Positions 36,635 to 56,979 of a DNA stretch of 64,000 nt are shown piece by piece. Where the stretch lies: positions 1,472,001 through 1,536,000 of the forward strand of contig OZ242029.1 in NCBI GenBank assembly GCA_965205015.1, in the 5' to 3' direction. Origin of the DNA: Candidatus Poribacteria bacterium. Its GTDB lineage: Bacteria > Poribacteria > WGA-4E > WGA-3G. The position numbers and the translations under genes are program-made. The first letter of the stretch is position 1. Each line of letters begins with the position of its first letter. Below the pieces are notes generated by a model. That model saw only the letters and a program-made list of their open reading frames with translations. It did not search any database and had not been told where the DNA came from.

Positions 36635-36646
36635 CTGTTCTCCTTT

Positions 36647-38185: not shown

Positions 38186-38291
38186 TTAATACACCTCATT
38201 AGCAGAATGACATCTGCAGCGGTTTCCTAAAGACAGCACATCATGAAATATTGCTATTTTGATGCTTGATCGGCGATAGCTGGAAAGTTAT

Positions 38292-39176
38292 CTACCCGCC
38301 TTTAGAATCAGTAGATTTGACTTCATACCTCTTTAATTGAAGGGTTTTACCCGTGGTTGAAGCCTTCACTTGAGAGTGAGTTATAACTGTCAGAAGGATA
38401 TCCTCCGCTTCTTGGTGAAACTTGACAATTCCGACGTTGGGTGCTACCCACAGCGTCGTAACGGATTCACCGGGTGGATTCGCTTCCCCAGCCCGGTCGC
38501 GTGCGCCCCCATTCGCGCCATGAACGAATATTGCGACTTCTGTTGACGTCCGATACTCAATTTTCAAACAGTCTTCAAAAGTGCCAGCGGGTGTCTCAAC
38601 GTTTTCCGTCCCTAAAACCTTGCCTGTTTCAACAATAGTAAACTCACATATCGTTTCCTCAGGATCTTGCGGCGGATCAGGTGTCATCGTGACTTTGGCT
38701 TTTATCTGTGCTACGTCCCACTTTTCGTCGAAGGTAACAGACGTTGGAAGCACATAAAATGGGTCTTGTGCCTCTACCTCAATGTCGTAGAGGAGATCGA
38801 AATTCGCCTCATGTATTTTGCCGAAGACCTCTACCTCTTTGGCAAGACGCGCCTTGACCGCTTTCTCTACATCATCACCGACCCAGAACGTAACTTGCTC
38901 TTCACCAACTCGATAGAGATGTGGGTGGATATGATAGTCATAATCCGCCCAATCCTCTAAAGCAGGTTCATAACTGAAGGCGTGATACGTCTCTCCGTCG
39001 ATATCTTTGTTCTCAATGACACGACGTGTTAATTCGTTTCCGTCTTGGTCTTCATAAACCCAGTAACTTCCGAGCGTGTGTGGAAAATAGGTATCAGCCC
39101 CTTCTTTCCCCACCAGTGTTGCACTAAAACCCAAAATGAGCGACAAACTAAAAATGACACGAAATCTTTTCAACAT
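38292..39176 (-). CDS. Secreted hypothetical protein with DUF3108-like beta domain
   Basis: Signal peptide; YFPHTLGSYWVY ... ENVETPAGTFEDCLKIEY ... LWVAPNVGIVK. Confidence 0.65.
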   Translation of the reverse strand: MLKRFRVIFSLSLILGFSATLVGKEGADTYFPHTLGSYWVYEDQDGNELTRRVIENKDIDGETYHAFSYEPALEDWADYDYHIHPHLYRVGEEQVTFWVGDDVEKAVKARLAKEVEVFGKIHEANFDLLYDIEVEAQDPFYVLPTSVTFDEKWDVAQIKAKVTMTPDPPQDPEETICEFTIVETGKVLGTENVETPAGTFEDCLKIEYRTSTEVAIFVHGANGGARDRAGEANPPGESVTTLWVAPNVGIVKFHQEAEDILLTVITHSQVKASTTGKTLQLKRYEVKSTDSKGG

Positions 39177-39239
39177 GATAGATTCCTCGAATTTTTCGTT
39201 TTTTAACCTAATGCTCTGTCAGGATTATTTTGAGAGGTT

Positions 39240-39270
39240 GTAGGTTGGGTTGAACGCAGTGAAACCCAAC
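39240..39270 (+). repeat. GTAG-type REP palindrome
   Basis: GTAG-GTTGGGTT-GAACGCAGTGA-AACCCAAC. Confidence 0.7.
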
Positions 39271-39567
39271 GTATTCTGCCAATCTAATCTATCAGCGTAG
39301 AGGTGACAGAACACGAACCTATAGGTAGAAGCGATTTTCAAGCGTGCTTCCTGAAATGAATTGCTTCAATTCCCACCGCGCATTTTGAGGTTGTCGTTAC
39401 TACAAACGAGTTTGAAAAAAGTTGCATTTTATTTTAATTTTAAATTTTCAGAATACTTACAATCCCATGAAATTTCACTAACGAAAGTCTCTACATGTTT
39501 TCGGACTTTATGGTAACCTCTATCCAACCGCAACGAGATATACACAAATCTACTGAATCCCGCCGCG

Positions 39568-41019
39568 TTACTTAACTTCGCTCATCAGAAACGAGACCTG
39601 TGCGATAATAAAGAAGAGTAGATTAAAGAGCACCAACAGACCGACTTGGGATAACACACTCCGATAGGAAATCTGCTCCGAAAAGACCGGCACAGCATTC
39701 GGATCCACAGGTTTCTGGGATAACCCTTCTCTCACAGGATAGATATGGAGGCTCTCCGGGTCACTTCGGTCTTCTGTTTTAACGAAGTCTATGAATGTCT
39801 GTCGGTAGCGACGCGCCTGTTTGACGAAATTCATATAACCGACGATACTCGTGTTCGCAAGCCCCTCCATCGCATACTGGAAAGTCGCTATCGGCGAGAT
39901 TTGGGTGAGGTCGCGGGCGAGTTGCACCTGCTGAAGCTGCCGGTCGATGTGTCCATCGGCAATTTGTGTGTCCGTATCGTTGATTGCTGTGAAGTATTCC
40001 GCCCAGAGACGTGTCACGGAAATTCTTTCAACGGAAGGTGATTTTTTTAGCTTCTTTGGGGACCCCCGTTGCCATTCGTCCTCGATCTGGTCTAATTGTG
40101 CCCGTCTTTGCATTGAAATCTCATCAACGGATGGAATCGGATTCAGATTACTGACAAAGGTGCCAAGTAAACTCGGAAAAACAAATGCCAAACAGACCCA
40201 AGTTAACAAGAGCCACACCAAACTTGTAATCGCATTTGAAACGCGACTTGAAAAAAACAGCCCAAGAAAAATAAAGACAGAGATGTGCAACGCAAAGAGT
40301 CCGACCATACCCAAAATTCTCAGCCAATCCGCAGCATCAAATGGAATGCTGCCAATGAGGCGAATGATTAAGAGGTTCATGAGGACACCCATGACCAGTG
40401 GTAGAAAGACTGTCACAAACGCGCCGAGATATTTCCCTAACAATACCTGTCCGCGCGAGATAGCGTTCGACATTATCAGGCTCAACGTGCCGCGCATCCG
40501 TTCCCCAGCGATAGCATCAAACGTGAACAAGATCGCAAAGAAACTCATCAGCACACCGATGAAGACCCAGTTGATTTTGACCCTCCCTGTCGAATTGCTG
40601 TCGGAACCTACGACTTCATACTCCAATCTCAATGGATGTCGCCATGCGTAATCTTCATCCTCAACACCGCTACTTCGACTAATATTGTAATCGCTCTTCA
40701 ATTTAATAGAACGCGATACGACTTCATCAACGCCACCGGCACAGAATATCAGACGACTGGGACGTTTCGGGATATCCCCAGGTCCCCTCAGCGCTAACTC
40801 CGCTAAACTTACGTCCGCTTGCTCTTTAATATGCTTCCTATTTTGTCGCACCCGTTCGTTGTAGCCATTAACCTGCGTCGTATACCCATCATCGCCGAGG
40901 CTATAGATCAGCGCATTCGCTACAAATAAAACAGGCAGCAGGATTATCATCAAAGCGAACCGTAGCGTCGTGAGATTGTGATGAATTTCTTTTTTTGCAA
41001 TGTGTAAAATCATTTTCAA
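39568..41019 (-). CDS. ABC-2-type transporter permease (B copy 1)
   Basis: HIAKKE, FDAIAGERMRGTL, LLGK. Confidence 0.85.
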   Translation of the reverse strand: MKMILHIAKKEIHHNLTTLRFALMIILLPVLFVANALIYSLGDDGYTTQVNGYNERVRQNRKHIKEQADVSLAELALRGPGDIPKRPSRLIFCAGGVDEVVSRSIKLKSDYNISRSSGVEDEDYAWRHPLRLEYEVVGSDSNSTGRVKINWVFIGVLMSFFAILFTFDAIAGERMRGTLSLIMSNAISRGQVLLGKYLGAFVTVFLPLVMGVLMNLLIIRLIGSIPFDAADWLRILGMVGLFALHISVFIFLGLFFSSRVSNAITSLVWLLLTWVCLAFVFPSLLGTFVSNLNPIPSVDEISMQRRAQLDQIEDEWQRGSPKKLKKSPSVERISVTRLWAEYFTAINDTDTQIADGHIDRQLQQVQLARDLTQISPIATFQYAMEGLANTSIVGYMNFVKQARRYRQTFIDFVKTEDRSDPESLHIYPVREGLSQKPVDPNAVPVFSEQISYRSVLSQVGLLVLFNLLFFIIAQVSFLMSEVK

Positions 41020-41026
41020 TAGTCCT

Positions 41027-41103
41027 CAGCAATCAGCAGTCAGCAGTCAGCAAGATAGTAGCCAGCCATTTTTCCGACAACTGACGACTGACAACCGACA
41101 ACC
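41027..41103. repeat. Heptamer tandem repeats in opposing orientation
   Basis: CAGCAAT CAGCAGT CAGCAGT CAGC ... CCGACAA CTGACGA CTGACAA CCGACAA. Confidence 0.7.
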
Positions 41104-41107
41104 ATTT

Positions 41108-42634
41108 CTAACTCATATCATATCGTAGGAAGGACACATAAGCCACCATGAATAGGACGATATTCCATGCGAATAAAATCAGAATATCCACGGAAGCGCG
41201 CGCGAAACTTTCTGAGATGGAGAGCCTTTTATGTTTAAAAACAGGCAGATCTGCCAAGTCCGCAACCCCCTTATCTGTGGAAAACCATGCCCGCGAAGAA
41301 AACGCTTCTTTATCCTTCAGATATTCGACAATCTCACGTTTATAGGCTCTGGAATCCTGAATAAAATCGTTATAACTCTGCCGGTCGGTTCCTGCTATTG
41401 TCCCGACAGCGAAGTGATATACGTCTGCGAACGAGATACGGGAGAGCGCGTCTGCGAGTTTAGCATTCCGCTCTCGTTCTTCGGCAGGTTTGTTGAGAAT
41501 TTCCTCCGCTTTACTCGCATATTCACTCCGAAGCCGCTCTTGATACCCTAAAAGTTCTTGGAAGATAGTGGTATCCGCTTTAGTAACATTTGTGACGCTA
41601 TAACGCCTGAGTCTGAAATAGCCTCCCGTATGGGAACTCGAACCTAACCCCGTTGAACTCGTCTCAGGTTCCCAAACAATTGACGCTTGCAAATTGTCAT
41701 AGCCTCTCTGTTGGAAGTAGGCATCCCGCTCTTTTTTGTACTCGTCCCAAACATCAAAGGCAGGTTGAAGAAATGTCCCTTCAGATTGCGACACATACGG
41801 CGAGAATTTGTCCACTGCAAACGTTACAACATTCGCATGCACACTCGTCAGGACCACCCAGATAAACATGGAAAGGATTAAGGTCGTTGCAGCTGTCTTC
41901 GTCCAAACTGACAGGAGCAATCCCAGAAGATACCACGTCGACACGTACAACAATGAGACCCCAAACATCAGGATGATATGCGTAATATCGTTTCCATCAA
42001 ACCCGGTAACTGGAGAAGAAACAGCGATGAGGAGTGCCACGATTAAACTCACCAAAACGATCGGGAACAGCGACAGCATCCCACCGAGATATTTTCCCAA
42101 AACGACTGTATCCCTCGGTATCGAATTGGACAATACAAGCTTCAGCGTGCCGTCTTCCCTCTCTCCCGAAATCGTATTGTAAGCGAACAGAATTGCCAAC
42201 GCGCTCAGCACGATCTTGAAGATGAAAACCACATCAACTGTCAGGAACATCGCAAGGAAGGGGTTGTCTGAGCCTCGTTTCTGTGTCGGTGCCCCCCACA
42301 TAGGGGAGGAGAATTCAAAGATAGGCTTTCCCAATTCAACGGTGACCGTATTTGCCCCCTCATTCTCCGCTCCGACGTTAAAGATACTCAACGGATTCGG
42401 TTTTCGGTGCGCTTTCGGTTTGATGTCGACATAGAGATCCCATTCCCGCGCTTCCACCTCCGCCTCCCGGACAGCGGTATTGTACCCCGACAAACGCTTC
42501 TCATAATCGTCCACTTGGACGAAAACGGCAACAGCGGTTGAAAGCACACATACAATAAACCCAATCATGAAGCGGGATGTCAACACATTCGAGACGAATT
42601 CTCGTTGGATAACCAGCCAAAGTGTCTGCATCAA
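41108..42634 (-). CDS. ABC-2-type transporter permease (A copy 1)
   Basis: YNTISGEREDGTLKLVLSN, ends FLRYDMS. Confidence 0.85.
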   Translation of the reverse strand: MMQTLWLVIQREFVSNVLTSRFMIGFIVCVLSTAVAVFVQVDDYEKRLSGYNTAVREAEVEAREWDLYVDIKPKAHRKPNPLSIFNVGAENEGANTVTVELGKPIFEFSSPMWGAPTQKRGSDNPFLAMFLTVDVVFIFKIVLSALAILFAYNTISGEREDGTLKLVLSNSIPRDTVVLGKYLGGMLSLFPIVLVSLIVALLIAVSSPVTGFDGNDITHIILMFGVSLLYVSTWYLLGLLLSVWTKTAATTLILSMFIWVVLTSVHANVVTFAVDKFSPYVSQSEGTFLQPAFDVWDEYKKERDAYFQQRGYDNLQASIVWEPETSSTGLGSSSHTGGYFRLRRYSVTNVTKADTTIFQELLGYQERLRSEYASKAEEILNKPAEERERNAKLADALSRISFADVYHFAVGTIAGTDRQSYNDFIQDSRAYKREIVEYLKDKEAFSSRAWFSTDKGVADLADLPVFKHKRLSISESFARASVDILILFAWNIVLFMVAYVSFLRYDMS

Positions 42635-42661
42635 GGCACCTCCGATAGTAGGTTTCGGTTC

Positions 42662-42723
42662 GTAGTAGGGCGATTCATCGCCCGTTTGTCCCGCGAAGGA
42701 TGCGCAATGAATTGCGCTACTAC
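42662..42723. repeat. Inverted pair of GTAG-type REP palindromes
   Basis: GTAGTAGGGCGATTCATCGCCC ... GCGCAATGAATTGCGCTACTAC. Confidence 0.75.
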
Positions 42724-42792
42724 AAACAACGATGAACCACCCTCAACTATTTATTCTCCATTGATCGCTCAGATTGCATATCCTGCAGATGC

Positions 42793-43602
42793 CTATTCAT
42801 AAACGATTGTCCGTCGCTTAATATCCCCCCAAGTGGTGGCAATTTTGTCTCTTGATGAAACCGCGAGAAAGTCTTTCATTGCTTCCGTAATTTCGGCTTC
42901 GGTGAGGGCACGTCGCCAGACACCCACTTCGTCAATAGAACCGTTTCTGAAGATATATCCCGGATGGCCTACCGCGCATCCAATGCGCAGATCTGAGTCA
43001 TTAGTTCCCATGAATTCAAACTCCTGCTCGCCATCAGAACGGATTACGCCATCCAGATAGATTCTCTTGGTCTTACCATCGTAAGTTCCTGCGATGTGAT
43101 GCCAGCTTTTATTTTCCATGGGTCCCGAGGTGATGAATCTCTTCTCCCCCCGACCTTCACCCAAGATCATGCCGATCTTTGGACCCTTGAATTCAATATG
43201 ACTTTCAAAGAACCCCATGCTGTAGGACCGCTTCTGATGAATCGGGTTTTGACTGCCTCTATCAAGCCACGCTCCCCAAGCCTTTTCCCAATCTTCATGA
43301 TATACCCAAGCCATCATTGTTATCTCATCTTCTATTTTTAGAAGGTCGTCCGCCGGGATATTGACGCACTCATCGCCTTCTGCTGCAGCGGCAATATGAA
43401 TCGCATCTCCATACTTGCCTTTAACAAAATCTACATTGGCGACGACATCGGCATGGAGATCATTGCCAGAGGCATCCAGAATCTTCTTGCCCTTCACGTT
43501 GTCAAAGGTAAAATAAAAAACAAGGTCATCCTCCAGTTCAGCAGTCGCTTGGCTTGTTGTGAATAATAGTGCAGCGATGAAAAGAAATGCTATCGATTTC
43601 AT
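42793..43602 (-). CDS. Secreted LamG domain protein with conserved C-terminal motif
   Basis: Signal peptide, DASGN, GKYG, WHHIAGTYDG, IDEVGVW; ends LAVSSRDKIATTWGDIK. Confidence 0.9.
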   Translation of the reverse strand: MKSIAFLFIAALLFTTSQATAELEDDLVFYFTFDNVKGKKILDASGNDLHADVVANVDFVKGKYGDAIHIAAAAEGDECVNIPADDLLKIEDEITMMAWVYHEDWEKAWGAWLDRGSQNPIHQKRSYSMGFFESHIEFKGPKIGMILGEGRGEKRFITSGPMENKSWHHIAGTYDGKTKRIYLDGVIRSDGEQEFEFMGTNDSDLRIGCAVGHPGYIFRNGSIDEVGVWRRALTEAEITEAMKDFLAVSSRDKIATTWGDIKRRTIVYE

Positions 43603-43634
43603 TGATACTTCCTCCCAGAGATTTCAAAATCCAA

Positions 43635-44438
43635 TTAGTCAGCAACTGCCCTCTGCTTCACATCGCCCCAAGTGGCGGCAACCTTGTCTTCCGGTGAAAC
43701 TACGAGGAAACCTTTCATCGCCTTCTCAATTTCCGCCTGAGAGAGCGCACGTCGCCAGACACCCACTTCGTCAATAGAGCCATTCTTGAAGGTATACTGT
43801 GGATGGTTTTTGGTACATCCGATGCGAAGGTCTATGTCATTGGCCCCACTGAATTCAAATGCTCTGTCAACGTTGGAGAGGATTTCGCCATTCAAATAGA
43901 TCTTTGCGGTCTTACCATCGTAAGTCCCAGCAATGTGGTGCCAGTTTTTATCTACCATTGCCCCCGTGGTGTTGAAGCCATACACGGCTTGGATTCCGCC
44001 TAAACGCATTCCAATATTTGGGCCCTTGAATGCCCCGACATCATTGATGAGTCCCATACTGTAGCCCTTCTTCTCCTCACCCAAAACATAACTACCCTTG
44101 TCAAACCACATTCCTGAATTCTTATCCCAATCTTCATTGAATACCCAAGCCATCATCGTTATCTTGTCTTCGAGTTTTAACAGATCATCCGTGGGGATAT
44201 GGACGCACTCATCGTCTTCCGCTACAGCGGCAATATGAAGCGCATTCCCATATTTGCCTTTGACAAAATCTACATTTGCGATGATTTCAGCATCAAGATC
44301 ATTGCCAGAGGCATCAAGAACCCTCTTACCCTTCACGTTGTCAAAGGAAAAAAACACAACCAGATCTTTATCGAGTCCCGCAAAGACTTGGCTCCCTGCA
44401 AATAGTACAAGAATCAAAGGAAATAGTATCCGTTTCAT
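43635..44438 (-). CDS. Secreted LamG domain protein (paralogue of 42793-43602)
   Basis: Same motifs; ends LVVSPEDKVAATWGDVK; ATGA overlap with the upstream 997-aa gene. Confidence 0.9.
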   Translation of the reverse strand: MKRILFPLILVLFAGSQVFAGLDKDLVVFFSFDNVKGKRVLDASGNDLDAEIIANVDFVKGKYGNALHIAAVAEDDECVHIPTDDLLKLEDKITMMAWVFNEDWDKNSGMWFDKGSYVLGEEKKGYSMGLINDVGAFKGPNIGMRLGGIQAVYGFNTTGAMVDKNWHHIAGTYDGKTAKIYLNGEILSNVDRAFEFSGANDIDLRIGCTKNHPQYTFKNGSIDEVGVWRRALSQAEIEKAMKGFLVVSPEDKVAATWGDVKQRAVAD

Positions 44439-47428
44439 TTTTTCTCCTCCAATGGATATTGATGTGGAACGATTTCAACAATTTTATCTCCAGCGTTCGC
44501 CTCGAAAAAGGCGGCAACATCATCAATCATCTCAGTCTTGATTTCATGTCTGGTATTCTCGTAGGTAACAAATTGCGCAGGAATACCAAGTGCCGTGTAT
44601 ATCGCCTGACTCATGTCCCATCGATCCGGCATCATTTTCGCGCCAATGAGGCTTTTGACCAACTCGGCATCCACCTCATCATAAGCATCCGGATACGGAA
44701 GGGTATCATTGTCATCCAAGGCACCCATGTAGATGTACTGGGAGACTTTTTTATACGCTGCTTCATCAAAGTCAACCCCAGCGATCTCTTTCACGTCCGC
44801 AATTCCAACCGGGTAACGCATCGTCGTACCGTTCCATTGACCCGTTGGGAAGGTCGGAATGCAGTTGATGCCACCCGTTGCGACAGCGCGAACAACCGTT
44901 GGGTGTAAAATGGTAAACCGATTTGTAAATGTCCCGGAAGCTGAAAACCCGTTCATGAAGACCTTCTCATCCACCTTGACATCATTGTGTCGTAGGAGCC
45001 TTTGGGCATGATTTATCATTCTGATGAGTTGCAAGTCGATCCGCCTAAGTCCTCCTTCTTGAATCAGGAGGGTATCTCTATCTAAAGCGTGCGTGTAGAT
45101 ATGTCCCCGATCTCCGCCGGGTCTCGGAAAAACTGGAACGAGCAATGGGACTTTCAGTTTTCTTGCGATTGCAGTCGCATGCGATCCCTCCGCTAATTCC
45201 TTTGTACTCCTATCGTGGATTTTAAAATTGTCACTCAGTGTTCCCGTGTTGCAAGGCTCTATCAGTAGATGAACCGGTTTGCTGGAATCCATTCCTCGTG
45301 GAACGAACAGATAATACGGAAAAGCAAATCCTTCTGTGAGGTCGGCTGAAATGCGATAAAGCAATTCATTCGAGAGATCGAGTTCTTCAATATCTGTTAC
45401 ATGGATAGGTGTCATATCCACAAAAGTAGGCGTAACTGGATCGGGACCTTCCGTTGTAAATGTTAGGATATACTCTTCCAGCGGAACGCCAGTCATATTC
45501 CTGTAACCTTCATTGCGTCCCAATATAAGTCTATAGATTTTTGAAGGTGATAGACGTTGATTAAACGAAATAACGAGGGTTGTATTGTCATCTTCCCACT
45601 GGATATCACCGAGTGGAACCCCGGCAAACCCGACATCCATTCCCTGCATCCTCTCGCTGAAGACGATTCGTATCTCTTTCAGATCCGTAGAAACTTTTTT
45701 AGATACGTCGGGAATAGTTCTTTCTACTTTTGGCGGTGTTGTCCCTTGTTGCGCCAAATCGGCATTTTCGGCGACTTGCCATTTCTCAATAACCGCTTCG
45801 TCCCGGTAACTATTTTGCCATCTATATGTCCACGTGTTATCAATCTGCAAGGGAAGGTATTCTTCTCCTTTGGCTGGAACATTGTATTCAAGCAGCTCCG
45901 CCTCCGTAACGACACCGTTGGCATGTTCATAGCGCATTTTCACGAGTCCAACACCTTTAGCGAACCATAAATAACGCGTGCCGTTGACAAGCGAACTCTT
46001 GCGCTCAGCACCGGCATTAGCACCTGTGAAGACGGTTTTATGCTTCAGGCATATTGTGAAAATGTCCGCGGAGACATCCACGGCTTCATAGCCCTCCAAG
46101 GTTGTCTCCACCTGTGAATCCCAATCCCCTTCCTGGGTCCAAGTATCTCCAACAACCAGGGGAAATCTAAATAGGTCTGTTGGATGGTGCACAAGATAAC
46201 GGACCAACATGTACCTCGGCGATGGATCGTTTTTCCCCATTCCACGAGTTTGATAACTTGCGGAGGTCAAAGCCGTATCGGTTTCCCTGAGCGTAACAGT
46301 GCCATCCGCCAAATGTTGTCCGGTTTCCGTAGCAGCGTTGGCACTTAGAACAATGGTGCGTTCATCTGAATATTGATACGGGTTAATTTCAACTATATCG
46401 GCACCCGAATTCGCCTCAAAAAACGCGACGACATCATCAATCATCTCCCGCCTGATTTCATGTCGAGTATTCTCATAAGTAACAAATTGCGCGGGAATTT
46501 CAAGTGTCTTGTATATCGACTGACTCACGTCCCACCGATCCGGCATCATTTTCGCGCCGATGAGGCTTTTGACTAACTCGGCATCTACTTCATCATAAGC
46601 ATCCCGGTACGGAACGGTATCGTTGTTATCCAACGCACCCATATAAATGTATTGGGAGACACGTTTATATGCCGCTTCGTCAAAGTCAATCCCGGTGATC
46701 TCTTTTACGTCCGCTATGCCGACGGGATAACGCATTGGGGTCCCGTTCCATTGATCTGTTGGGAAGGTCAGAATGCAGTTGACACCCCCCGTCGCGACGG
46801 CTCGGACAATCTTTGGGTGCAAAATCGCAAACCGATTCGTAAACGTCCCAGAAGCTGAAAATCCGTTCATGAAAACTCGCTCATTTATCTTCATGTTGTT
46901 GTGCCGCAGGAGCCCTTGGGCATGATTTATCATTTTGATCAGCTGCAGGTCAATTCTCTTGAGATCTCCGTCCGCAATCAGAAGGGTGTCTCTATCTAAG
47001 GAATGCGTATAGATTCGCCACCGCTCTCCACCCGGTCTCGGGAAAACAGGCACCAGTAGCGGAACTCCTAACTTGCGTGCGATTTTGTTAGCGTGGGAGG
47101 ATTTTTTTAATGCCAAGGACTTTGCTTTGCTATCATGGCGTTCAAAATCGTCACTGGTCGTTCCTGTATTACACGGTTCTACGAATAGATGAACCGGTTT
47201 GCTGGAATCCATCCCTTCTGGGACAAACAGATAATATGGGAAGGAAAATCCGGCTGCAGGGTTTGCTGATACACGTGCAGCTAACCCCTTTGAAAGATCC
47301 AGGTTCCCGGTATCTTCAATGTGAACAAAATCAATGGGTAGTGCTGTATCTTGCTGCGCCAAAAGGGTGGCTGATGCCCCGCACAAAAAGATCATTAACA
47401 CGCCCAACAGGATAAAAGGGGTTGCCAT
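44435..47428 (-). CDS. Secreted protein with two alpha/beta-hydrolase domains flanking a shared beta domain and an Ig-like (Big_5-like) domain
   Basis: Signal peptide; two near-identical domains each with GFSASG elbow, GALD(N/D)ND and TRHEI; central domain shared with the M61 proteins; PPKVERTIP...IRIVFSERM. Confidence 0.75.
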   Translation of the reverse strand: MATPFILLGVLMIFLCGASATLLAQQDTALPIDFVHIEDTGNLDLSKGLAARVSANPAAGFSFPYYLFVPEGMDSSKPVHLFVEPCNTGTTSDDFERHDSKAKSLALKKSSHANKIARKLGVPLLVPVFPRPGGERWRIYTHSLDRDTLLIADGDLKRIDLQLIKMINHAQGLLRHNNMKINERVFMNGFSASGTFTNRFAILHPKIVRAVATGGVNCILTFPTDQWNGTPMRYPVGIADVKEITGIDFDEAAYKRVSQYIYMGALDNNDTVPYRDAYDEVDAELVKSLIGAKMMPDRWDVSQSIYKTLEIPAQFVTYENTRHEIRREMIDDVVAFFEANSGADIVEINPYQYSDERTIVLSANAATETGQHLADGTVTLRETDTALTSASYQTRGMGKNDPSPRYMLVRYLVHHPTDLFRFPLVVGDTWTQEGDWDSQVETTLEGYEAVDVSADIFTICLKHKTVFTGANAGAERKSSLVNGTRYLWFAKGVGLVKMRYEHANGVVTEAELLEYNVPAKGEEYLPLQIDNTWTYRWQNSYRDEAVIEKWQVAENADLAQQGTTPPKVERTIPDVSKKVSTDLKEIRIVFSERMQGMDVGFAGVPLGDIQWEDDNTTLVISFNQRLSPSKIYRLILGRNEGYRNMTGVPLEEYILTFTTEGPDPVTPTFVDMTPIHVTDIEELDLSNELLYRISADLTEGFAFPYYLFVPRGMDSSKPVHLLIEPCNTGTLSDNFKIHDRSTKELAEGSHATAIARKLKVPLLVPVFPRPGGDRGHIYTHALDRDTLLIQEGGLRRIDLQLIRMINHAQRLLRHNDVKVDEKVFMNGFSASGTFTNRFTILHPTVVRAVATGGINCIPTFPTGQWNGTTMRYPVGIADVKEIAGVDFDEAAYKKVSQYIYMGALDDNDTLPYPDAYDEVDAELVKSLIGAKMMPDRWDMSQAIYTALGIPAQFVTYENTRHEIKTEMIDDVAAFFEANAGDKIVEIVPHQYPLEEKK

Positions 47429-47498: not shown

Positions 47499-47556
47499 CC
47501 TTGTGACGCTATGTCGTATTTTAAGGGCGGAAAGGTTGCATAAAATGAATTTTATG
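47499..47556 (-). promoter_or_regulatory. Putative ECF-sigma promoter, copy 2
   Basis: Minus strand CATTTTATGCAACCTTTCCGCCCTTAAAATACGACATAGCGTCACAAGG, nearly identical to 56612-56668. Confidence 0.7.
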
Positions 47557-48806: not shown

Positions 48807-48809
48807 AAA

Positions 48810-51182
48810 TTACCGACTGTTGCCCAATATTTCTGACCAGATCGAACGTTGCGATCCTGTACTATCTGCGCTTTTCGTGATGGTAACACCAATAGTATCC
48901 GCTTCCAACGGCGGTTTCTTGGAAGCGTCCCCACCTAATGTAACAGGTAAGATCATTTCTGTACCCTCTCGTCCAAGGGTTAACTCCACCACATCGCCGG
49001 ATTTCCACCGCTTGGCAAGTTTCGCTATGTCGCTAAATGAATTCACGGGTGTACCATTGATGGCAGCCAGATGATCTCCATCTTGATACGCAGGGGATTT
49101 ATCAATAATCACATCCCCCGCCGGCGTTTGTGTAAGGGACCGGATACCGAGCATCTCTTTGAAAACATAACCGAGGTCGGGAAGTTCCTCCTCTATCTGT
49201 ACATCCAGACCCGCCTCTCCGAAATATTCAGCGAGCGGCAATTTTTCCGTTCCCGAAACATACTTTCGGAAGAACGGCTCAAAATTTTTATCCGCAACGT
49301 CAGTAACAATGCGGATGACATCATCTATCGTATACTTTTCACCGGTGGTCCCAAACTCCTGATACATCTGCTTCATTACGTCGTCCAGACTCTTTTGTCC
49401 CGCGTCTATTGAGACGTGTGTGAGTTTGCGGATTTGCACATCTAATGCAGCGGCAACCAGACCGCCACCGCGATAGACTAAACCCGAGTTCGCCATTTTG
49501 GCTTCACCCGCCCTGCGTAGGGAGAGTTTCCCCACCTGACCCAGATACGACTCACAGGAACGCCCAAGGTTTTTGAGGAAATCGCCTTCAGAAAGGAGCC
49601 CAAGCTGAACAGAGATAATCCTTGAATAATAATCGGTGAACCCTTCCATAAACCAGTATTCCTGCTCATCAAAAAAATCAATAGCTGTGCCGATCCAGAT
49701 ATGGCAAATTTCATGTGCGACCAGCGGCACCCAAAAATTCTTACTGGTTTCATCTAAGGATCCACCCATCAGAACGCTGATGCTGTGTCCAGAAACACCG
49801 CCGCACGTTTCACCTTTCCCGCCATAAGGATTTGCGACAAATAGCATCCTGCCCTTCGGGGTACCACCGAATACCCTTGAATACGCGTGTAAAAGTGCTT
49901 CCACTGTGCGTTGCATTTCATCAGCGGCGGCTTTAAAGCGCCCACCGATTGCGACTACAATCTCCGCCTCTTTAGACTTCGCCACCTTCTCAGAATGCGT
50001 GCCAAGCACCATATACGCATACATCAAATCGTCCTGATCTCCAATAGCAAAACGGTGTCCTTTATCGCCAATGCGCTGCCAAGGGGTCGAGACGTGCCAA
50101 TTCTCTGGCACATCAACATAGAGTTCGATATCGCTCGCCTCACCAACGATAAACAAGGCATATCCAGGACAGAAAATACAGTCTTCTTGGAGATATGGAG
50201 CCTCACTCTGACCGGTGGGCCACTCTCGTTCATCATGGTTCAGCAGTACTTTGTAACTCAGCGTCACAGGCGATTTATCCGTTGTTTTAATTGCCCAACG
50301 CGTTTTACCGAGGAGCACCTGTGGCAATTTTTCTCCGTCAGCATTCGTGACTGATATATCCCTGAGGTACCTTTCATATCCATCATGTATATTTTCCGTG
50401 CCAAACTCACTCATGGATAACAAGAGGGTCTCGCCACTGTTCCGTTTTGGGGTTAAGACGCAACTGACGTGCGCCACGCGTCGCTCATCAGCATCTATTT
50501 TGATCTCATACCTCGCTGACGCAAGTTCCATCGGGTTCCCTAAATCTTCAGGTTTTTCAAAATTTCTGACGACGCGACACGTCTCAATAACCGCTTCGTC
50601 ACGATAATCGTTCTGCCACTTATATCGCCACATATTACCGACTTGTAAGGGAAGGTATTCTTGTGCTTCGGTAGGAACTTCATATTCAAGCAACTCAGCT
50701 TCCGTAACAACACCGTTGGCATGCTCATAACGCATCTTTACAACTCCAATGCCTTCGGCGAACCATAGATAGCGCGTGCCGTTCACAAGCGAGTTTCGCT
50801 GTTCAGAACCCGCTTCCGCGTCCGTAAAGACTGTCTTATGCTTTAGGCAATCAGAAAAGATGCCTGCGGAAATTTTTACCGACTCATAGCCTTCCAAGCT
50901 TGTCTTTGTCCGCGTGTTCCAGTGTCCTCCTTCCGTCCAGATATCCCCAATCCTTATAGGAAATCGAAAGAGGTCAGTTTCATGGTGACTGATATAATAC
51001 AGCAACATATACCTCGGCGATGGATCGCTCCCACCGGTCCCACTGGAGCCAAAATCGGTGGATGTCAAAGCCGTATCGGTTCTTTCGAGATCGAAAACGC
51101 CTTCTGCCAAACGCATTCCACTTTCTGTAGCGGCACTGGCACTCAGGACGATGTTACGTTCGGATTTAATCGTTTCTTCCAT
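48810..51182 (-). CDS. Peptidase M61-like metallopeptidase with C-terminal PDZ-like domain (paralogue 3)
   Basis: AHEICHIW (HExxH) plus WFMEGFTDYY, VYRGG, SLDDVMK, GD...AING. True start ATG 51182 (MEETIKSERN) by alignment with paralogue 2. Confidence 0.85.
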   Translation of the reverse strand: MEETIKSERNIVLSASAATESGMRLAEGVFDLERTDTALTSTDFGSSGTGGSDPSPRYMLLYYISHHETDLFRFPIRIGDIWTEGGHWNTRTKTSLEGYESVKISAGIFSDCLKHKTVFTDAEAGSEQRNSLVNGTRYLWFAEGIGVVKMRYEHANGVVTEAELLEYEVPTEAQEYLPLQVGNMWRYKWQNDYRDEAVIETCRVVRNFEKPEDLGNPMELASARYEIKIDADERRVAHVSCVLTPKRNSGETLLLSMSEFGTENIHDGYERYLRDISVTNADGEKLPQVLLGKTRWAIKTTDKSPVTLSYKVLLNHDEREWPTGQSEAPYLQEDCIFCPGYALFIVGEASDIELYVDVPENWHVSTPWQRIGDKGHRFAIGDQDDLMYAYMVLGTHSEKVAKSKEAEIVVAIGGRFKAAADEMQRTVEALLHAYSRVFGGTPKGRMLFVANPYGGKGETCGGVSGHSISVLMGGSLDETSKNFWVPLVAHEICHIWIGTAIDFFDEQEYWFMEGFTDYYSRIISVQLGLLSEGDFLKNLGRSCESYLGQVGKLSLRRAGEAKMANSGLVYRGGGLVAAALDVQIRKLTHVSIDAGQKSLDDVMKQMYQEFGTTGEKYTIDDVIRIVTDVADKNFEPFFRKYVSGTEKLPLAEYFGEAGLDVQIEEELPDLGYVFKEMLGIRSLTQTPAGDVIIDKSPAYQDGDHLAAINGTPVNSFSDIAKLAKRWKSGDVVELTLGREGTEMILPVTLGGDASKKPPLEADTIGVTITKSADSTGSQRSIWSEILGNSR

Positions 51183-53586
51183 CAGTGCCTTCCTCACAAA
51201 AGTTGCCCTTGCCCAATATTCCTGACCAAATTGCCCGTTGCGCTTGTGTGCTATTTGCGCTTTTGGTGATGGTAACATCAATAGGACCCGCCTCCAACGG
51301 AGGGCTTTTAGACGCGTCCCCGCCTAACGTGACAGGTAGGATAATTTCTTTACCCTCCCTTTCAAGGGTTAACTTTACCATCTCACCCGGTTTCCACGCT
51401 TTGGCAGCCTTTCTGATGTCGTCAAAAAATTTCACCGGTGTGCCGTTGACACCTATCAGATTGTCCTCATCTTGATACTGCTCGGACTGGTGGATAAACA
51501 TACCGCCCCCTGTTGGTCCCCCGATTGAACTGATACCAAGCATCTCATGAACGACATACCCGAAACGCGGCAGCTCTTCGCTAAATTCTACATTTGCATC
51601 CACACCTGCATCTCCGAGATATTCCGTCAGGGGCAACCGATCTGTCCCTGAAACATACTTGCAGAAGAACGGTTCCAAATCTTCACCCGCAATTTGACCG
51701 ACAATTCTGATGACATCCTTCATTGTGTATTTGCTTCCGGTGAGACCGAATTCTTGATACATCTGCTTCATCACATCGTCCAAACTCTTCCGGTTTTGCG
51801 TGAGACTGCGAATCCGTAAATCCAGAGCCGCAGCAATGAGACTTCCTCCCTGATAGACGAGTTCACGGTTGGCGGATTTGTCTTCACCCGCCTCGCGGAT
51901 AGAAAGCTGCCCCTGTCGAGAGAGATACGATTCACACTTGCGTTCCAGATCCCTGAGAAAATCATTTTCAGAGGTTAATCCGAGACGGGTACAGATAATT
52001 CTCGAATAGTATTCGGTGAAACCTTCGCTAAGCCAGTATTCCTGCCATTTAAAATCGATAGTTTTTCCGATCCAGATATGGCAAATCTCATGCGCAACCA
52101 GCGGCACCCAAAAACTTCTATCGGTTTCACTCAAAGACCCACTCGTCAGAACAGTGATACTGCTTCCAGAAACACCGCCTCCGCGGTGTTTCTCATTGGG
52201 ATTTGCCACAAACAGCATACGATCCTGTGGCGTACCATCGAAAACTCCGGAATACGCGTGCAAGAGTGATTTAACAGTTTTTTGAACTTCATCCATAGAC
52301 GCCTTGAAGCGTCCACCCAGTGCAAGCACAATCTCGGGCTCTCCCGTCCCTCTTGACAAACGTGCCAACCTCTCAGAATGCGTTCCAAGTAAGAGATAGG
52401 CAGATATCAAATTGTTCTGGTCGGTGATAGCAAAACGGTGTCCCTGGTTTCCAATACGTTGCCAAGATGTTGAAACATGCCAATTTTCAGGAACATCAAG
52501 ATACAGTTCGATATCCTCCACTTCTGCGGCGATGAACAGAGCATATCCGGGCCAAAAAATACAGTCCTCTTGGATGTAAGGGGTTTCAGGCTTACCCCAC
52601 TGCCATTCCCTCTCATCATGATTTAGTAACACTTTGTAATGCAATGTCACAGGTAAGTCATTCTCGGTTTCAATCATCCACTGTGTTTTGCCAATCTCTG
52701 TGACGGGTATTTTTTCACCATTAGCATCTGTGCCGCTTAGATCTCGCAGATATCTGCCATATCCCTCGTAGAGACCTTCCGTCCCAAAATGGCTCATGGA
52801 TAATAGCAACGGCTTTCGGTCGCCTTTTGTATCATGGGTCGCCTTTGGTGTTAAGACACACGTGACATGTGCGACACGCCGTTCAGCAGCATCTATTTTA
52901 ACTTGATACTGCGCCGACGCGAGTTCCATCGGATTATCAAGATTCTCAGGCTCACTGAAATTTCGGATGACGCGCCACTCCTCAATAGTTGCCTCGTCGC
53001 GAGAGATGTTCTGCCACCTGTATGTCCACTGTGTGCCAATCTGGACAGGGAGGTACTCTTGTGCCTCAACAGGCATCTCGTATTCAAGCAACTCGGCTTC
53101 CGTAACGATACCGTTGGAATGTTCATAACACATTTTCACGAGTCCAACACCCTTAGCGAACCACAAATAACGGGTGCCGTTCACAAACGCATTCCGCAGT
53201 TGAGCGTCGGCATCCTCAGCATCAGCGTTTGTGAAGACAGTTTTATGTTTAAGGCATGACGAAAAAGCCCCCGCGGAAACCTCAACTGTCTCAGACCCTT
53301 CCAAAGTTATCGTTGCTTCTGATTTGCAAGGACCCTCCTGCCGCCAATGATTTCCGATAACCACAGGAAATCTAAAGAGGTCACTCTCACCCCCATAGCT
53401 AACATGGCGTAGCAACATGTACATCGGGGAGCCAAGACTGCGCCCTTCCGTAGAAGAACCATTAGATGTCAAAGCCTCATTGGTCTTCTTGAAATTAAAA
53501 ATTCCTTCTGCCAAATGCACTCCATCTTCCGTAGCGGCACTGTTACTAAAGACAATATTACGTTCGGATTTAATCGTTTCTTTCAT
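51166..53586 (-). CDS. Peptidase M61-like metallopeptidase with C-terminal PDZ-like domain (paralogue 2)
   Basis: AHEICHIW plus WLSEGFTEYY, VYQGG, SLDDVMK; TGATG coupling to the sigma-fusion gene; no signal peptide. Confidence 0.87.
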   Translation of the reverse strand: MKETIKSERNIVFSNSAATEDGVHLAEGIFNFKKTNEALTSNGSSTEGRSLGSPMYMLLRHVSYGGESDLFRFPVVIGNHWRQEGPCKSEATITLEGSETVEVSAGAFSSCLKHKTVFTNADAEDADAQLRNAFVNGTRYLWFAKGVGLVKMCYEHSNGIVTEAELLEYEMPVEAQEYLPVQIGTQWTYRWQNISRDEATIEEWRVIRNFSEPENLDNPMELASAQYQVKIDAAERRVAHVTCVLTPKATHDTKGDRKPLLLSMSHFGTEGLYEGYGRYLRDLSGTDANGEKIPVTEIGKTQWMIETENDLPVTLHYKVLLNHDEREWQWGKPETPYIQEDCIFWPGYALFIAAEVEDIELYLDVPENWHVSTSWQRIGNQGHRFAITDQNNLISAYLLLGTHSERLARLSRGTGEPEIVLALGGRFKASMDEVQKTVKSLLHAYSGVFDGTPQDRMLFVANPNEKHRGGGVSGSSITVLTSGSLSETDRSFWVPLVAHEICHIWIGKTIDFKWQEYWLSEGFTEYYSRIICTRLGLTSENDFLRDLERKCESYLSRQGQLSIREAGEDKSANRELVYQGGSLIAAALDLRIRSLTQNRKSLDDVMKQMYQEFGLTGSKYTMKDVIRIVGQIAGEDLEPFFCKYVSGTDRLPLTEYLGDAGVDANVEFSEELPRFGYVVHEMLGISSIGGPTGGGMFIHQSEQYQDEDNLIGVNGTPVKFFDDIRKAAKAWKPGEMVKLTLEREGKEIILPVTLGGDASKSPPLEAGPIDVTITKSANSTQAQRAIWSGILGKGNFCEEGTDGRND

Positions 53587-56552
53587 CAGTCAGAATTCTC
53601 CTTGCCTAACATTCCTAACCAGATGGCGCGTTGCGAGTCCGTGGCATCCGCGCTCTTTGTGATGGTAACATCAATAGGTCCAGCTTCAAGGGGAGGTTTT
53701 TCAGATGTGTTACCCGCTAATGCGACCGGTAGGGTAATTTCCTCCCCCTCTCTCTCAAGCGTTAACGCTACGACATCACCGGAACGCCAATCTTTGGCAA
53801 CCTTTCTAATGTCGTCAAACGTCTTCACCGAGGTACCGTTGATGCTTATCAACGCATCGTCATCCTGATATTGCGGTGACTGATGGATGAACATACCGCC
53901 GCCTGTTGGTCCACCAAGTGAATTGATATGAAGCATCTGAAAAAGAATATACCCAAGACTTGGAAGTCTTTCGCCAAAGTCTATCTCAACACTCATACCC
54001 GCGTCCTTAAGATATTTCTCTAACGGCAACCGCTCTGTCCCTGCCACATATTTGTGGAAGAAGGGTTTAAAATCTTCACCCGTCATTTGGCTGACGATCC
54101 GGATGACATCGTTCATTGTATACCTAATATCGGTAAGACCGAATTCTTGATACATCTGCTTCATCACATCGTCCAAGCTGCTTCGGTTCTGTGTAAGTGT
54201 ACGGATCTGTAAATCCAGAGTAGCGGCGACTAAACTGCCACCGTCATAGACGAGTTCGCGGTTGGCGGATTTGTCTTTCCCTGCCTCGCGAATCGAAAGT
54301 TGTCCGTGTCGAGATAGATAAGATTTCCACCTGCGTTCAAACTTCCTGAGAAAATCGCTTTCAGAAATAAGTCCAAGGCGGGCAGAAACAACATCTGAGT
54401 AATATCCTGTGAAACCTGCGCTAAACCAATACTCCTGTTCCCTAAAAGTGATAGCCTGACCCGCAACCCAGAGACAGCAAACCATATATCCCACAAGCGG
54501 CAGCCAAAAACGTCTGCTCGCTTCATCTAATTCACCACCGATCAGCACGCTGATGCTGCGTCCGGACGCGCCTCCACTCATGTGTCCCTTTTCACCATAG
54601 GGGTTTGCAACAAACAACAGTTTACCTTCCGGGGTGCCACCGAATATCCCAGAATATGCGTCCAGAAGTCCCTCAATAGTCCCCTGTATTTCATTCATAG
54701 ACGCTTTGAAGTGTGCCCCAGTCACCAGCACAACCTCGGTATCCCCAACCTTTGCCAGACGCTCAGCGTGTTCACCGAGCACAAGATACGCATACATCAA
54801 GTCGTCGTGATCTTTACAAACGAAACGGTGCCCCTCAGACGCAATCCGTTCCCAAGGTGTTGAAACACGCCAATTCTCTGGCACATCCACACACAGTTCG
54901 ACATCGCTCGTCTCACCGACAACAAACAGCGCATACCCTGGACAGAAAATACAATCCTCTTGGACATAAGGGGCTTCATCTGGACCCGGTGCCCATTCCC
55001 ATTCATCGTGATTCAGCAACACTTTGTAACGCACCGTTATAGGTGATGCGTCCCGTGCTTTAACTAACCATTGCGTTTTGCCGATCTCCTCTACCGGCAA
55101 TGTTTCACCGTTTACATCGGTCACCGTCAAATCTCGAAGATACCGGGCATACCCATCATATACCCATTCAGCCCCAAAACGACTCATGGATAACAGCAAA
55201 GGCTTTTGCTCCCCTTTTGTACTGCCAACTTTCGGCGTTAGTACACACTTGACATGCGCCACGCGTCGTTCATCGGCATCTATTTTAACGTCATATCTCG
55301 CTGACGCAAGTTCCATGAGATTATCAAGATTTTCGGGATGACTGAAATTCCGGAGGACGCGCCACTCTTCAACGATCGCCTCATCGCGATAATCGTTGTG
55401 CCATCTGTATGTCCACTGCGTGCCAATTTGCGAAGGTAGGTATTCTTGTTCTTGGACGGGGATCTCATATTCAAGCAATTCGGCTTCTGTAATGACACCA
55501 TTGGCATGCTCATAGCGCATCTTCACGATCCCAACGCCCTCGGCAAACCACAGATAACGCGTGCCGTTTAGGTATGCGTTTCCCCCTTCAGCGTCGGGGT
55601 CTTCCACGTCAGCATCTGTGAAGACAGTTTTATGCTTCAGGCACGATCGGAAACTCCCAGCGGAGATTTCGACAGTCTCATACCCTTCCAAGGTTATCGT
55701 CGCTTTCGATTTGTAAGGACCTTCCTGCTCCCAACGACTTCCAATAACCAAAGGGAATTTAAAGAGGTTTATCTCATTACGACGGTGGTTAATATAGTGT
55801 AGCAACATGTACATTGGTAGCGGGTAGTCCCCTCTGAGCCCTGTCGTACGAGAACCCATAGATGCGAAAACCTTATCGGTTTGGCTGAGATCAAAACCCC
55901 CTTCCGCCAAATGTTTACCGGTTTCCATTGCCGCAGTTGCTTGAACACCAATGTATCGCTGTTCGTTTTTTAATAAATTCGGACTCAAGTTTTCCCGAAG
56001 CATCGACTCCTCCTGCTCCAATCGCTTCCGTGCACGATATAGTCGACTTTTTACTGTGTTCAAAGATACATCTAAACGCTCACTCACTTCCTCACATGTC
56101 AGACCGTTGAAATAGTGCAATATCATCACCGAACGCTCACTGGGCGTCAGTTTTTGGAGGAGGCGTTCCACGACTTCACGCAGTCCCTCCCTTGACGCTT
56201 GTGTTTGCTCTTTCTCAAGATATTGCGTATAGAACACTCCCTCTAACTCGGCTTTCGGCATCGCATCCAAAGACTGCATCGTCATCGGCTCTCGTCGCAG
56301 CCATTCAATACACTGACGTTTCGCTATGACATGTAACCACCCCGAAAAACGATTGGGGTCTCTCAAGCTTGGAAGCGACTTAAAAGCCTGGATGAAGGTG
56401 TCCTGTGTAATCTCCTGTGCGGCGTGGAAATCACCGATCTCACGCCACGCGAGCGAATGAATCCATTTCCGGTGTCTTTCCACCAGCGCGGTGAACGCAC
56501 CTTCATCGCCCGACAAGATGCGTTGAATCAGATTAACATCTTCGTTTTTCAC
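53586..56552 (-). CDS. ECF sigma-70 factor fused to a catalytically degenerate M61-like peptidase/PDZ module
   Basis: Sigma2 (GDEGAF..LV, AQEITQDTFIQAF, FSGWL..IA) and sigma4 (ERSVMILHYFNGLTCEEVS..L..SLNTVKSRLYRARKRL), then ~800 aa collinear with the two peptidases but VGYMVCCLW and WFSAGFTGYY at the zinc-ligand positions. GTG 56552 has a GGAGG RBS (ORF track start 56570). Confidence 0.9.
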   Translation of the reverse strand: MKNEDVNLIQRILSGDEGAFTALVERHRKWIHSLAWREIGDFHAAQEITQDTFIQAFKSLPSLRDPNRFSGWLHVIAKRQCIEWLRREPMTMQSLDAMPKAELEGVFYTQYLEKEQTQASREGLREVVERLLQKLTPSERSVMILHYFNGLTCEEVSERLDVSLNTVKSRLYRARKRLEQEESMLRENLSPNLLKNEQRYIGVQATAAMETGKHLAEGGFDLSQTDKVFASMGSRTTGLRGDYPLPMYMLLHYINHRRNEINLFKFPLVIGSRWEQEGPYKSKATITLEGYETVEISAGSFRSCLKHKTVFTDADVEDPDAEGGNAYLNGTRYLWFAEGVGIVKMRYEHANGVITEAELLEYEIPVQEQEYLPSQIGTQWTYRWHNDYRDEAIVEEWRVLRNFSHPENLDNLMELASARYDVKIDADERRVAHVKCVLTPKVGSTKGEQKPLLLSMSRFGAEWVYDGYARYLRDLTVTDVNGETLPVEEIGKTQWLVKARDASPITVRYKVLLNHDEWEWAPGPDEAPYVQEDCIFCPGYALFVVGETSDVELCVDVPENWRVSTPWERIASEGHRFVCKDHDDLMYAYLVLGEHAERLAKVGDTEVVLVTGAHFKASMNEIQGTIEGLLDAYSGIFGGTPEGKLLFVANPYGEKGHMSGGASGRSISVLIGGELDEASRRFWLPLVGYMVCCLWVAGQAITFREQEYWFSAGFTGYYSDVVSARLGLISESDFLRKFERRWKSYLSRHGQLSIREAGKDKSANRELVYDGGSLVAATLDLQIRTLTQNRSSLDDVMKQMYQEFGLTDIRYTMNDVIRIVSQMTGEDFKPFFHKYVAGTERLPLEKYLKDAGMSVEIDFGERLPSLGYILFQMLHINSLGGPTGGGMFIHQSPQYQDDDALISINGTSVKTFDDIRKVAKDWRSGDVVALTLEREGEEITLPVALAGNTSEKPPLEAGPIDVTITKSADATDSQRAIWLGMLGKENSD

Positions 56553-56611: not shown

Positions 56612-56668
56612 CCTTGTGACGTTATGTCGTATTTTAACGGGGGTAAGGTTGCATAAAATGCAATTTTA
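56612..56668 (-). promoter_or_regulatory. Putative ECF-sigma (autoregulatory) promoter, copy 1
   Basis: Minus strand CATTTTATGCAACCTTACCCCCGTTAAAATACGACATAACGTCACAAGG: TGCAAC-N18-CGAC, an AAC/CG-type ECF arrangement. Confidence 0.7.
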
Positions 56669-56959: not shown

Positions 56960-56979
56960 AGCGAAGGAGGTGCGTTTAT

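Follow-up and report, generated by a model that had tools for sequence, protein, structure and literature searches.

We found that a 64,000-nt stretch of the genome of a Candidatus Poribacteria bacterium (GenBank assembly GCA_965205015.1, contig OZ242029.1, forward-strand positions 1,472,001 to 1,536,000; hereafter the window, to which plain coordinates refer) contains a gene, gene 1, in which an extracytoplasmic function (ECF) sigma factor is fused to an M61-type peptidase module that has lost its catalytic residues, and that two paralogues of this module with these residues kept, genes 2 and 3, follow in tandem. The fusion is conserved among Poribacteria, and in the fused copies loss of the catalytic residues goes together with retention of the remainder of the fold. 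We lean moderately toward the reading that gene 1 may encode a soluble one-component ECF sigma factor, in which the extension would be an input domain gating the sigma factor, with a local regulon.

Loss of the catalytic centre in the fused module

Three minus-strand open reading frames (ORFs), at 53586-56570, 51166-53586 and 48810-51281, are arranged head to tail. The true start of gene 1 is the GTG at 56552, the coordinate given with the original prediction, which has GGAGGG ahead of it and gives a 988-aa product identical to the database protein P0004; a [M/V]KNEDV start with GGAGG 6-7 nt upstream is common to 26 orthologous loci. The stop codon of gene 1 and the start codon of gene 2 overlap as TGATG, and the most likely start of gene 3 is the ATG at 51182, located 17 nt within gene 2 behind GAGGAAGG; from these overlaps, the three genes look translationally coupled. 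Genes 2 and 3 are collinear with residues ~200-994 of gene 1, with identities of 65% and 59%, respectively, over a module of ~800 aa. The genes and the domains of gene 1 are as follows.

53586..56552, minus strand: gene 1, 988-aa ECF sigma factor with beta-barrel, dead M61 module and PDZ-like domain (P0004; P0001 is the same protein from the ATG at 56570)
56289..56486, minus strand: sigma region 2 (Pfam PF04542 Sigma70_r2, 55.9 bits, profile positions 1-68 of 71)
56019..56177, minus strand: sigma region 4, helix-turn-helix (Pfam PF08281 Sigma70_r4_2, 61.6 bits, profile positions 2-54 of 54)
55341..55958, minus strand: predicted beta-barrel of ~12 strands, DUF3108-like or LolA-superfamily-like, right behind the sigma4 helix (AlphaFold2 model; predicted local distance difference test, pLDDT, 87.9; predicted template modelling score, pTM, 0.87)
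54795..55298, minus strand: M61 N-terminal beta domain (Pfam PF17899 Peptidase_M61_N, 46.8 bits)
54003..54773, minus strand: M61 catalytic-fold domain without catalytic centre (Pfam, alignment and Foldseek)
53718..53996, minus strand: PDZ-like domain, then a conserved C-terminal tail (AlphaFold2 strands 853-944)
51166..53586, minus strand: gene 2, 806-aa soluble paralogue with barrel, M61 and PDZ domains, keeping HEICH (52078-52092) and the third-ligand Glu
48810..51182, minus strand: gene 3, second soluble paralogue, keeping HEICH (49701-49715) and the Glu

In the alignment, YMVCC of gene 1 (54474-54488) stands opposite HEICH of genes 2 and 3, WFSAG stands opposite WLSEG and WFMEG, and the third zinc-ligand Glu, 18 residues past the second His, is replaced by Ala (54417-54419), confirming the original prediction that the three tandem genes share a module whose site is dead in gene 1 and intact in genes 2 and 3. 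Among 5.8 billion proteins searched, 118 further clusters (P0005-P0122) had the same sigma+M61 architecture, and 116 of these are without the catalytic Glu and one or more zinc ligands; of the other two, P0108 has a gap at the motif, leaving its site unreadable, and P0105 is taken up below. HExxH was kept in none of the 33 fused genes found in genomic loci and was retained in the neighbouring paralogues, both as had been predicted. The replacements form lineage-specific, internally conserved sets, namely RL..Y/A (47 clusters), YM..S/A, YM..C/A, NV..Y/E, GV..Y/E, HV..Y and others. Since only 5 of the 116 dead fused clusters have Cys-Cys, the position being mostly Tyr, Ser or Ala, the further proposal that these residues add redox or metal sensing was rejected as a family property.

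Selection on the dead copies was assessed in two ways. Sixty-one reference columns are invariant across 32 active Poribacteria paralogues and 20 HExxH-bearing outgroups, and 52 of these were retained at 90% or more across the 116 dead copies; only H499, E500, H503 and E521, exactly the catalytic tetrad, dropped below 20% retention. In pairwise Nei-Gojobori comparisons of 27 fused orthologues, the ratios of nonsynonymous to synonymous substitution rates (dN/dS), which are approximate since dS is ~1 and thus near saturation, were 0.08 for the sigma part, 0.18 for the barrel, 0.15 for M61_N, 0.17 for the dead catalytic domain and 0.19 for the PDZ-like domain and tail, compared with 0.16-0.19 for 19 adjacent active paralogues. 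By this measure, which had been suggested as a check on the original prediction, neutral evolution of the dead domain is excluded and purifying selection is indicated; as read from the alignment, the M61 domain of gene 1 is a textbook pseudo-enzyme, with the fold kept and the chemistry gone. A dead copy (DYMVCC, Ala) lacking the sigma part was also observed in P0123 (805 aa; 77% identical to gene 1), which could be an unfused dead paralogue, the result of a mis-called start, or a split gene.

In addition to the two sigma regions, gene 1 matched Sigma70_ECF in Pfam (40.3 bits, above the cut-off) and the ECF superfamily model TIGR02937 in NCBIfam (94.9 bits, cut-off 42.9); Pfam gave no match to sigma region 3 or region 1, and no named NCBIfam equivalog was matched at or above its cut-off. 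The sigma2-sigma4 core is joined to the ~800-aa extension via a short flexible hinge. In the full AlphaFold2 model (pLDDT 86.4, pTM 0.71), the low-confidence stretches are limited to the sigma2-sigma4 linker (residues 88-123) and this hinge (189-195; pLDDT <50), and a complex prediction of the sigma core (1-190) with the extension (196-988) scored 0.01, uninformative in either direction.

The best Foldseek matches of the barrel, 3buu, 9tp6, 3bk5 and 3fzx (E ~1e-4), comprised LolA-superfamily proteins and the DUF3108/YmcC-like 3fzx, with TM-scores of only 0.28-0.39 against 3buu, 9tp6 and 3fzx; in VIA-align, 12-strand outer-membrane porins ranked top (Z 11-12), and the Bacteroidales lipoprotein 4fvs gave a Z of 8.7 at 16% identity. 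DUF3108_like scored 17.1 bits on the gene 2 barrel, under the cut-off of 27, which relatives exceed (for example P0127, 40.4), and a profile search of the barrel against PDB sequences gave a chance-level match only (E 0.47). We read it, from the model, as a soluble LolA/DUF3108-like barrel. The same barrel is also present in genes 2 and 3 and in a secreted 997-aa protein (44435-47428) and, more distantly, in a 294-aa protein (38292-39176).

Behind the barrel, the Peptidase_M61 match of gene 1 is partial (26.6 bits, profile positions 35-82) and starts only past the zinc motif; genes 2 and 3 match M61_N, M61 from profile position 5 and also Peptidase_M1. The gene 1 model was nevertheless similar in Foldseek to the solved M61 structures 4fgm (E 1.4e-28), 8j9c (5.6e-26) and 7xyo (3.6e-22). 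The PDZ_2 scores were 17.3 bits for gene 1 and 18.5 for gene 3, under the cut-off of 27, with relatives reaching 78 (P0125) and 37.7 (P0132).

In none of the three proteins did any 19-residue Kyte-Doolittle window reach 1.6, in agreement with the original prediction of no transmembrane (TM) helix or signal peptide; the maximum of gene 1, 1.59, falls in the buried YMVCC helix, and residues 190-260 are unremarkable. Having no TM helix, the whole gene 1 protein should be cytoplasmic, and regulated intramembrane proteolysis would not apply to it. Nor were anti-sigma families detected near gene 1, including the small ORFs upstream, so the earlier statement that no adjacent anti-sigma gene exists also stands.

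Distribution and origin of the fusion

The 118 fused clusters share 66-86% identity with gene 1 and cover 81-100% of the query (at least 97% in all but three), and those with a named source are from 'Candidatus Poribacteria'. A scan of one genome per species gave 50 loci, belonging to Poribacteria metagenome-assembled genomes wherever named, of which 33 hold the fused gene through the motif region. Single-frame matches spanning residues 1-3 to at least 982 were found in 46 of 175 genomes of the phylum, ~10 more being partial or fragmented; the sigma-M61 architecture put forward in the original prediction is genuine and conserved. When the library was clustered at 50% identity, the entire fused family collapsed into a single representative, P0020, which marks it, on this criterion, as a narrow, lineage-specific family.

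In a tree of the barrel-to-PDZ module (62 rows; support from the Shimodaira-Hasegawa-like approximate likelihood ratio test), all 27 fused rows form one clade (100), which is sister (100) to the 'act1' paralogues located directly downstream of the fusion. Gene 2 belongs to the 'act1' clade and gene 3 to the 'act2' clade, and the 'act2', membrane-anchored and ~1230-aa forms branch outside the pair formed by the fused and 'act1' clades. P0105, with its intact site, falls inside the fused clade, near its unresolved base. This topology indicates that duplication and fusion occurred once, that the copy was intact at fusion, and that catalysis was lost afterwards, possibly more than once; alternatively, the site of P0105 may have been restored by gene conversion.

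The sigma module of gene 1 is ~50% identical to the N-termini of dozens of proteins of 400-1283 aa, which in Pfam carry WD40, BNR/Sortilin, LamG, LRR, C-type lectin, TPR+trypsin, GHL15, redoxin and other domains. One strong membrane helix, at about residues 216-262 and in most cases at ~216-250, was present in 58 of the 79 such relatives examined, with a conserved REALxNFQISPNLTENIMRE... ahead of it and RFQKPYSLD behind; the gene 1 linker, RENLSPNLLKN, has no helix and keeps the SPNL core of this juxtamembrane stretch. P0129 is a membrane-tethered sigma factor with an M61 module that has lost the first His (RELFH), P0124-type paralogues have the juxtamembrane stretch, helix and active M61 module without the sigma part, and M61 relatives outside Poribacteria mostly have a signal peptide and HExxH. 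The soluble fusion appears to have branched off, as a cytoplasmic form, from a family of sigma signalling devices that consist of one membrane-tethered protein each.

Several related arrangements were observed. A large Poribacteria family (P0171-P0272; loci L042-L049) consists of an ECF sigma factor, the juxtamembrane stretch, one TM helix and a big outer domain, with PD40 and Reg_prop among the outer domains, and tandem arrays of three to four sigma-like ORFs occur in each of L043, L044 and L046. It is possible that many of the 'eukaryote-like' repeat proteins in these symbionts serve as sensors for sigma factors, and the repeat-protein expansion of sponge symbionts would then consist in part of signalling hardware. 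In addition, ~420-aa paralogues contain the sigma core and barrel only (P0134, P0150, P0259; L035; L072-L075 in genomes G006-G009), and in P0139, P0148, P0149, P0153 and P0212 a BlaR1-type M56 transducer domain is joined to the M61 module or to a DUF3108-like barrel, the M56-fused M61 copies keeping HExxH.

Putative promoter and neighbouring genes

The features upstream and downstream of the three genes are as follows.

56626..56652, minus strand: putative ECF-type promoter GCAACC-N17-CGAC of the sigma-fusion operon, near-invariant in 31 orthologous upstream regions
47513..47539, minus strand: second copy of the putative promoter, in a near-identical ~85-nt block, directly before the 997-aa gene
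44435..47428, minus strand: 997-aa gene preceded by the second promoter copy, encoding a signal-peptide-like N-terminus, hydrolase-like repeat, barrel, Big_5 and second hydrolase-like repeat
35150..44438, minus strand: downstream cluster of two LamG genes, two ABC-2 (ATP-binding cassette) permease gene pairs and the 294-aa DUF3108-like barrel gene (Pfam)

Across the 31 orthologous regions, the conserved upstream block reads AAAAATTTT.CATAAAAATGCATTTT-ATGCAACC-N17-CGACAT-AACGTCACAAGGCA, with an AT-rich upstream part. GCAACC-N17-CGAC shows the AAC/CG(T/A) pattern of ECF promoters. The 'repeated promoter' mentioned with the original prediction exists, as the motif is present in two copies in the window. 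Five complete Poribacteria genomes contain it one to three times per ~6 Mb (reversed control, 0), one copy always being located before the fusion. As for the extra copies, those of G005 precede a membrane-anchored active M61 paralogue and a 997-aa homologue, that of G001 precedes DUF4097/Big_5/lectin genes, that of G002 (one mismatch) precedes an ABC ATPase gene together with NPCBM-like and OEP genes, and that of G004 precedes ABC-2 permeases. The ~420-aa sigma+barrel-only paralogues in L072-L075 lie directly upstream of ABC-2 permeases and have a sister promoter, GCAACC-N16-CGTC.

Of the 31 aligned upstream regions, 24 have, between promoter and start codon, a 5' untranslated segment of ~45 nt (TTTCGG...CCGAAACTTGCTATCA; window 56553-56620, minus strand); L007, L013, L018, L023, L032 and L038 show a clean gap at this place, and L021 has unrelated sequence instead. 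The fold of the untranslated region was indistinguishable from that of shuffled sequences (z-score -0.49), and no Rfam family matched within 44000-59000 of the window.

The fusion is followed within 300 bp by an HExxH paralogue in 23 of 33 loci, mostly with stop and start codons that overlap; in three loci the paralogue lies at 1-3 kb, and in seven there is none within ~8 kb. On the single 5.2-5.6 Mb chromosomes of G006, G008 and G009, a search for further full M61 modules (E<=1e-20) found none. In G007, the sole further M61 sequences are paralogue fragments with in-frame stops (G007:C1:4362028-4362630; L076, L077), just downstream of the fusion; judged from these stops, an active paralogue has decayed there and the dead fused copy has been kept. 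In G175, the genome of P0105, the fused gene is the only M61-module gene, and an ABC-2 permease pair follows after 210 bp. By gene content, the active paralogues are dispensable, and co-assembly with them, one of the options in the original prediction, or sensing on their behalf cannot be the core function, as 7 of 33 loci have none within ~8 kb and three complete genomes have no other M61-module gene. In 29 of 33 loci, the fusion has ABC-2 permease pairs, the gene for the secreted 294-aa DUF3108-like barrel, or both downstream of it on the same strand, and it is this export and barrel cluster, not the peptidases, that by the same comparison is the constant partner of the sigma fusion.

The cluster at 35150-44438 is the probable regulon of the sigma fusion. 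Homologues of the 997-aa gene are also present in orthologous loci. In the 997-aa protein, two similar ~330-aa repeats (…FPYYLFVP.GMDSSKPVHL…EPCNTGT…GFSASGTF…) flank the barrel and Big_5; they matched no Pfam family, and their GFSASG motif suggests a serine hydrolase.

On the upstream side, a TnpB-like gene (OrfB_IS605 plus Cas12f1-like TNB domain) is present at 57206-58432 on the plus strand, with flanks at ~56760-58500, between the sigma operon and an enolase-superfamily gene at 58504-59601. In L007, L013 and L026, the 3' end of the enolase gene (coding ...FTWPNSRLADGSIADY) abuts the sigma promoter region, and the TnpB-like region looks like an IS200/IS605-family insertion in the lineage of the window.

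Possible modes of action and known systems

In the gated one-component reading, the sigma factor would recognise GCAACC-N17-CGAC, so that it would autoregulate its own operon and also activate the neighbouring paralogues and the 997-aa gene, and probably the ABC-2 cluster as well. The barrel, dead M61 domain and PDZ-like domain would together form the input domain, keeping the sigma factor inactive or unable to engage RNA polymerase until a ligand is bound; the ligand would most plausibly be a peptide or hydrophobic molecule related to the substrates of the paralogous peptidases and to the ABC-2 cargo. A broader scenario can be offered only tentatively. A still-active peptidase duplicate would have been joined to an ECF sigma factor, with P0105 as a living intermediate, and the zinc site would have been lost stepwise in different lineages, through HV..Y+E, NV..Y+E and GV..Y+E and then RL..Y+A and YM..S/C+A; the groove would now bind a peptide or lipid handled by the active paralogues and ABC-2 and switch on their transcription, and a large, so far undescribed family of single-protein sigma devices would have as its inputs many of the WD40, LRR, TPR, lectin and BNR proteins found in Poribacteria.

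Several points weigh against gating by ligand binding. P0105 (genome G175) is fused and yet keeps both HEIGH and the Glu, showing that a fusion can persist without catalytic death, which is not strictly needed, and the near-saturated dS noted above makes the substitution ratios approximate. The hinge at 189-195, as modelled, would suit proteolytic release equally well, and the closest sigma relatives are membrane-tethered and, by analogy, presumably activated by cleavage rather than by conformational change.

The last two points lead to an alternative that we regard as unlikely but deserving attention, in which the extension would be a tether or mask and the sigma factor would become active only once the hinge past sigma4 is cut, either by the co-expressed PDZ-bearing HExxH paralogues or by another protease; regulated proteolysis, as presumed for its membrane-tethered relatives, would have been carried over into a soluble protein. 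It is consistent with the nearest sigma modules (~50% identity) being in proteins made up of a sigma factor, juxtamembrane stretch, one TM helix and large outer domain, with the 'SPNL' juxtamembrane remnant in the gene 1 linker, and with the hinge being the sole low-confidence stretch besides the sigma2-sigma4 linker; activation by proteolysis is also among the modes given for ECF extensions in the part of PMC8999054 that deals with them. However, the fusion is not regularly accompanied by any protease, as three complete genomes lack any other M61-module gene, and the strong, fold-wide purifying selection on the dead domain exceeds what a disposable mask would need.

Two further alternatives appear improbable. 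One, the second option of the original prediction, is that the dead domain would heteromerise with the active M61 paralogues of its operon, and enzyme abundance would thereby feed back on the sigma factor; the fused module is indeed the sister clade of the adjacent paralogue, and 23 of 33 loci have an HExxH paralogue no more than 300 bp downstream, but 7 of the 33 have no HExxH paralogue within ~8 kb, G006, G008 and G009 have no other full M61-module match, G007 has fragments only and G175 has the fused gene only. The other, to which we give an equally small chance, is that the extension is not regulatory but structural, localising or moonlighting (for example, binding a cell component), the fusion simply coupling its dosage to the sigma factor. 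The full active site of the fused P0105 would fit such a role, but no anti-sigma gene or other regulator was found nearby, and the ~420-aa sigma+barrel-only paralogues, together with the modules located behind BlaR1-type M56 domains, point to signalling. An apparent fusion created by a frameshift, misassembly or decaying pseudogene has virtually no chance of being correct and is refuted by the open single frame in 46 genomes and 118 protein clusters from several sources, by dN/dS far below 1, and by the conserved start codon and ribosome-binding site.

Gating of the sigma factor by its extension is related in logic to BlaR1 and MecR1, transducers in which the sensor is an enzyme-derived, turnover-deficient relative of the induced resistance enzyme. 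In both cases an enzyme-like domain would be reused as a receptor for the expression of active relatives, and relatives of the M61 module do sit behind BlaR1-type M56 domains (P0139, P0148, P0149); the output of BlaR1/MecR1, however, is a protease acting on a repressor, whereas that of gene 1 would be a sigma factor in a soluble protein. With the M61 glycyl aminopeptidases (4fgm, 8j9c, 7xyo), gene 1 shares the fold and the Pfam M61_N and M61 domains but differs in the replacement of HExxH and the downstream Glu, in the barrel ahead of the fold and in the N-terminal sigma factor. The membrane-tethered Poribacteria sigma fusions are similar in their ~50% identical sigma part and in the juxtamembrane stretch of which gene 1 keeps a remnant, and one of them, P0129, is TM-anchored with an M61 module; unlike these sigma-TM-X proteins and other membrane-tethered sigma hybrids (IutY-like), gene 1 has no TM helix between sigma factor and sensor.

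ECF factors without an anti-sigma factor, in which a C-terminal extension takes over sensing, are treated in sections of PMC8999054 and PMC7826278, where at least 19-26 such groups are counted, with ECF41, ECF42 and ECF238 among them; many have yet to be studied. Gene 1 resembles the ECF41/ECF42 type in having an ECF core without a cognate anti-sigma gene and a conserved C-terminal extension. This extension is ~800 aa long, compared with roughly 20-200 aa in those sections of the two papers (PMC8999054, PMC7826278), and differs in its make-up of barrel, dead M61 and PDZ-like domains and in the active paralogues adjoining it. Neither SnoaL (ECF41) nor TPR (ECF42) was among the Pfam matches of gene 1 at E<=0.01. 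'Peptidase', 'M61' and 'Poribacteria' do not appear as extension types in the main texts of PMC7826278 and PMC7671368. No sigma-M61 or sigma-pseudo-peptidase fusion was found in the searched literature, as far as its main texts extend, and an ECF group number may exist in supplementary lists.

No branch of bacterial signal transduction is understood less well than the ECF sigma factors with built-in sensor extensions, of which only those with small extensions have been investigated so far. The large enzyme-derived extension of gene 1 offers useful traits in this respect, namely a clear origin, as the sister paralogue adjoins it, a surviving active-site intermediate, and a defined candidate promoter with a small candidate regulon; gating of a sigma factor by a pseudo-enzyme would be directly testable in a heterologous host, although the organism is uncultured.

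Elsewhere in the window, the region 6382-13691 contains three sulfatase genes, PhyH-family dioxygenase genes, a PPK2 gene and LamG genes, ordinary content that is unrelated to the fusion.

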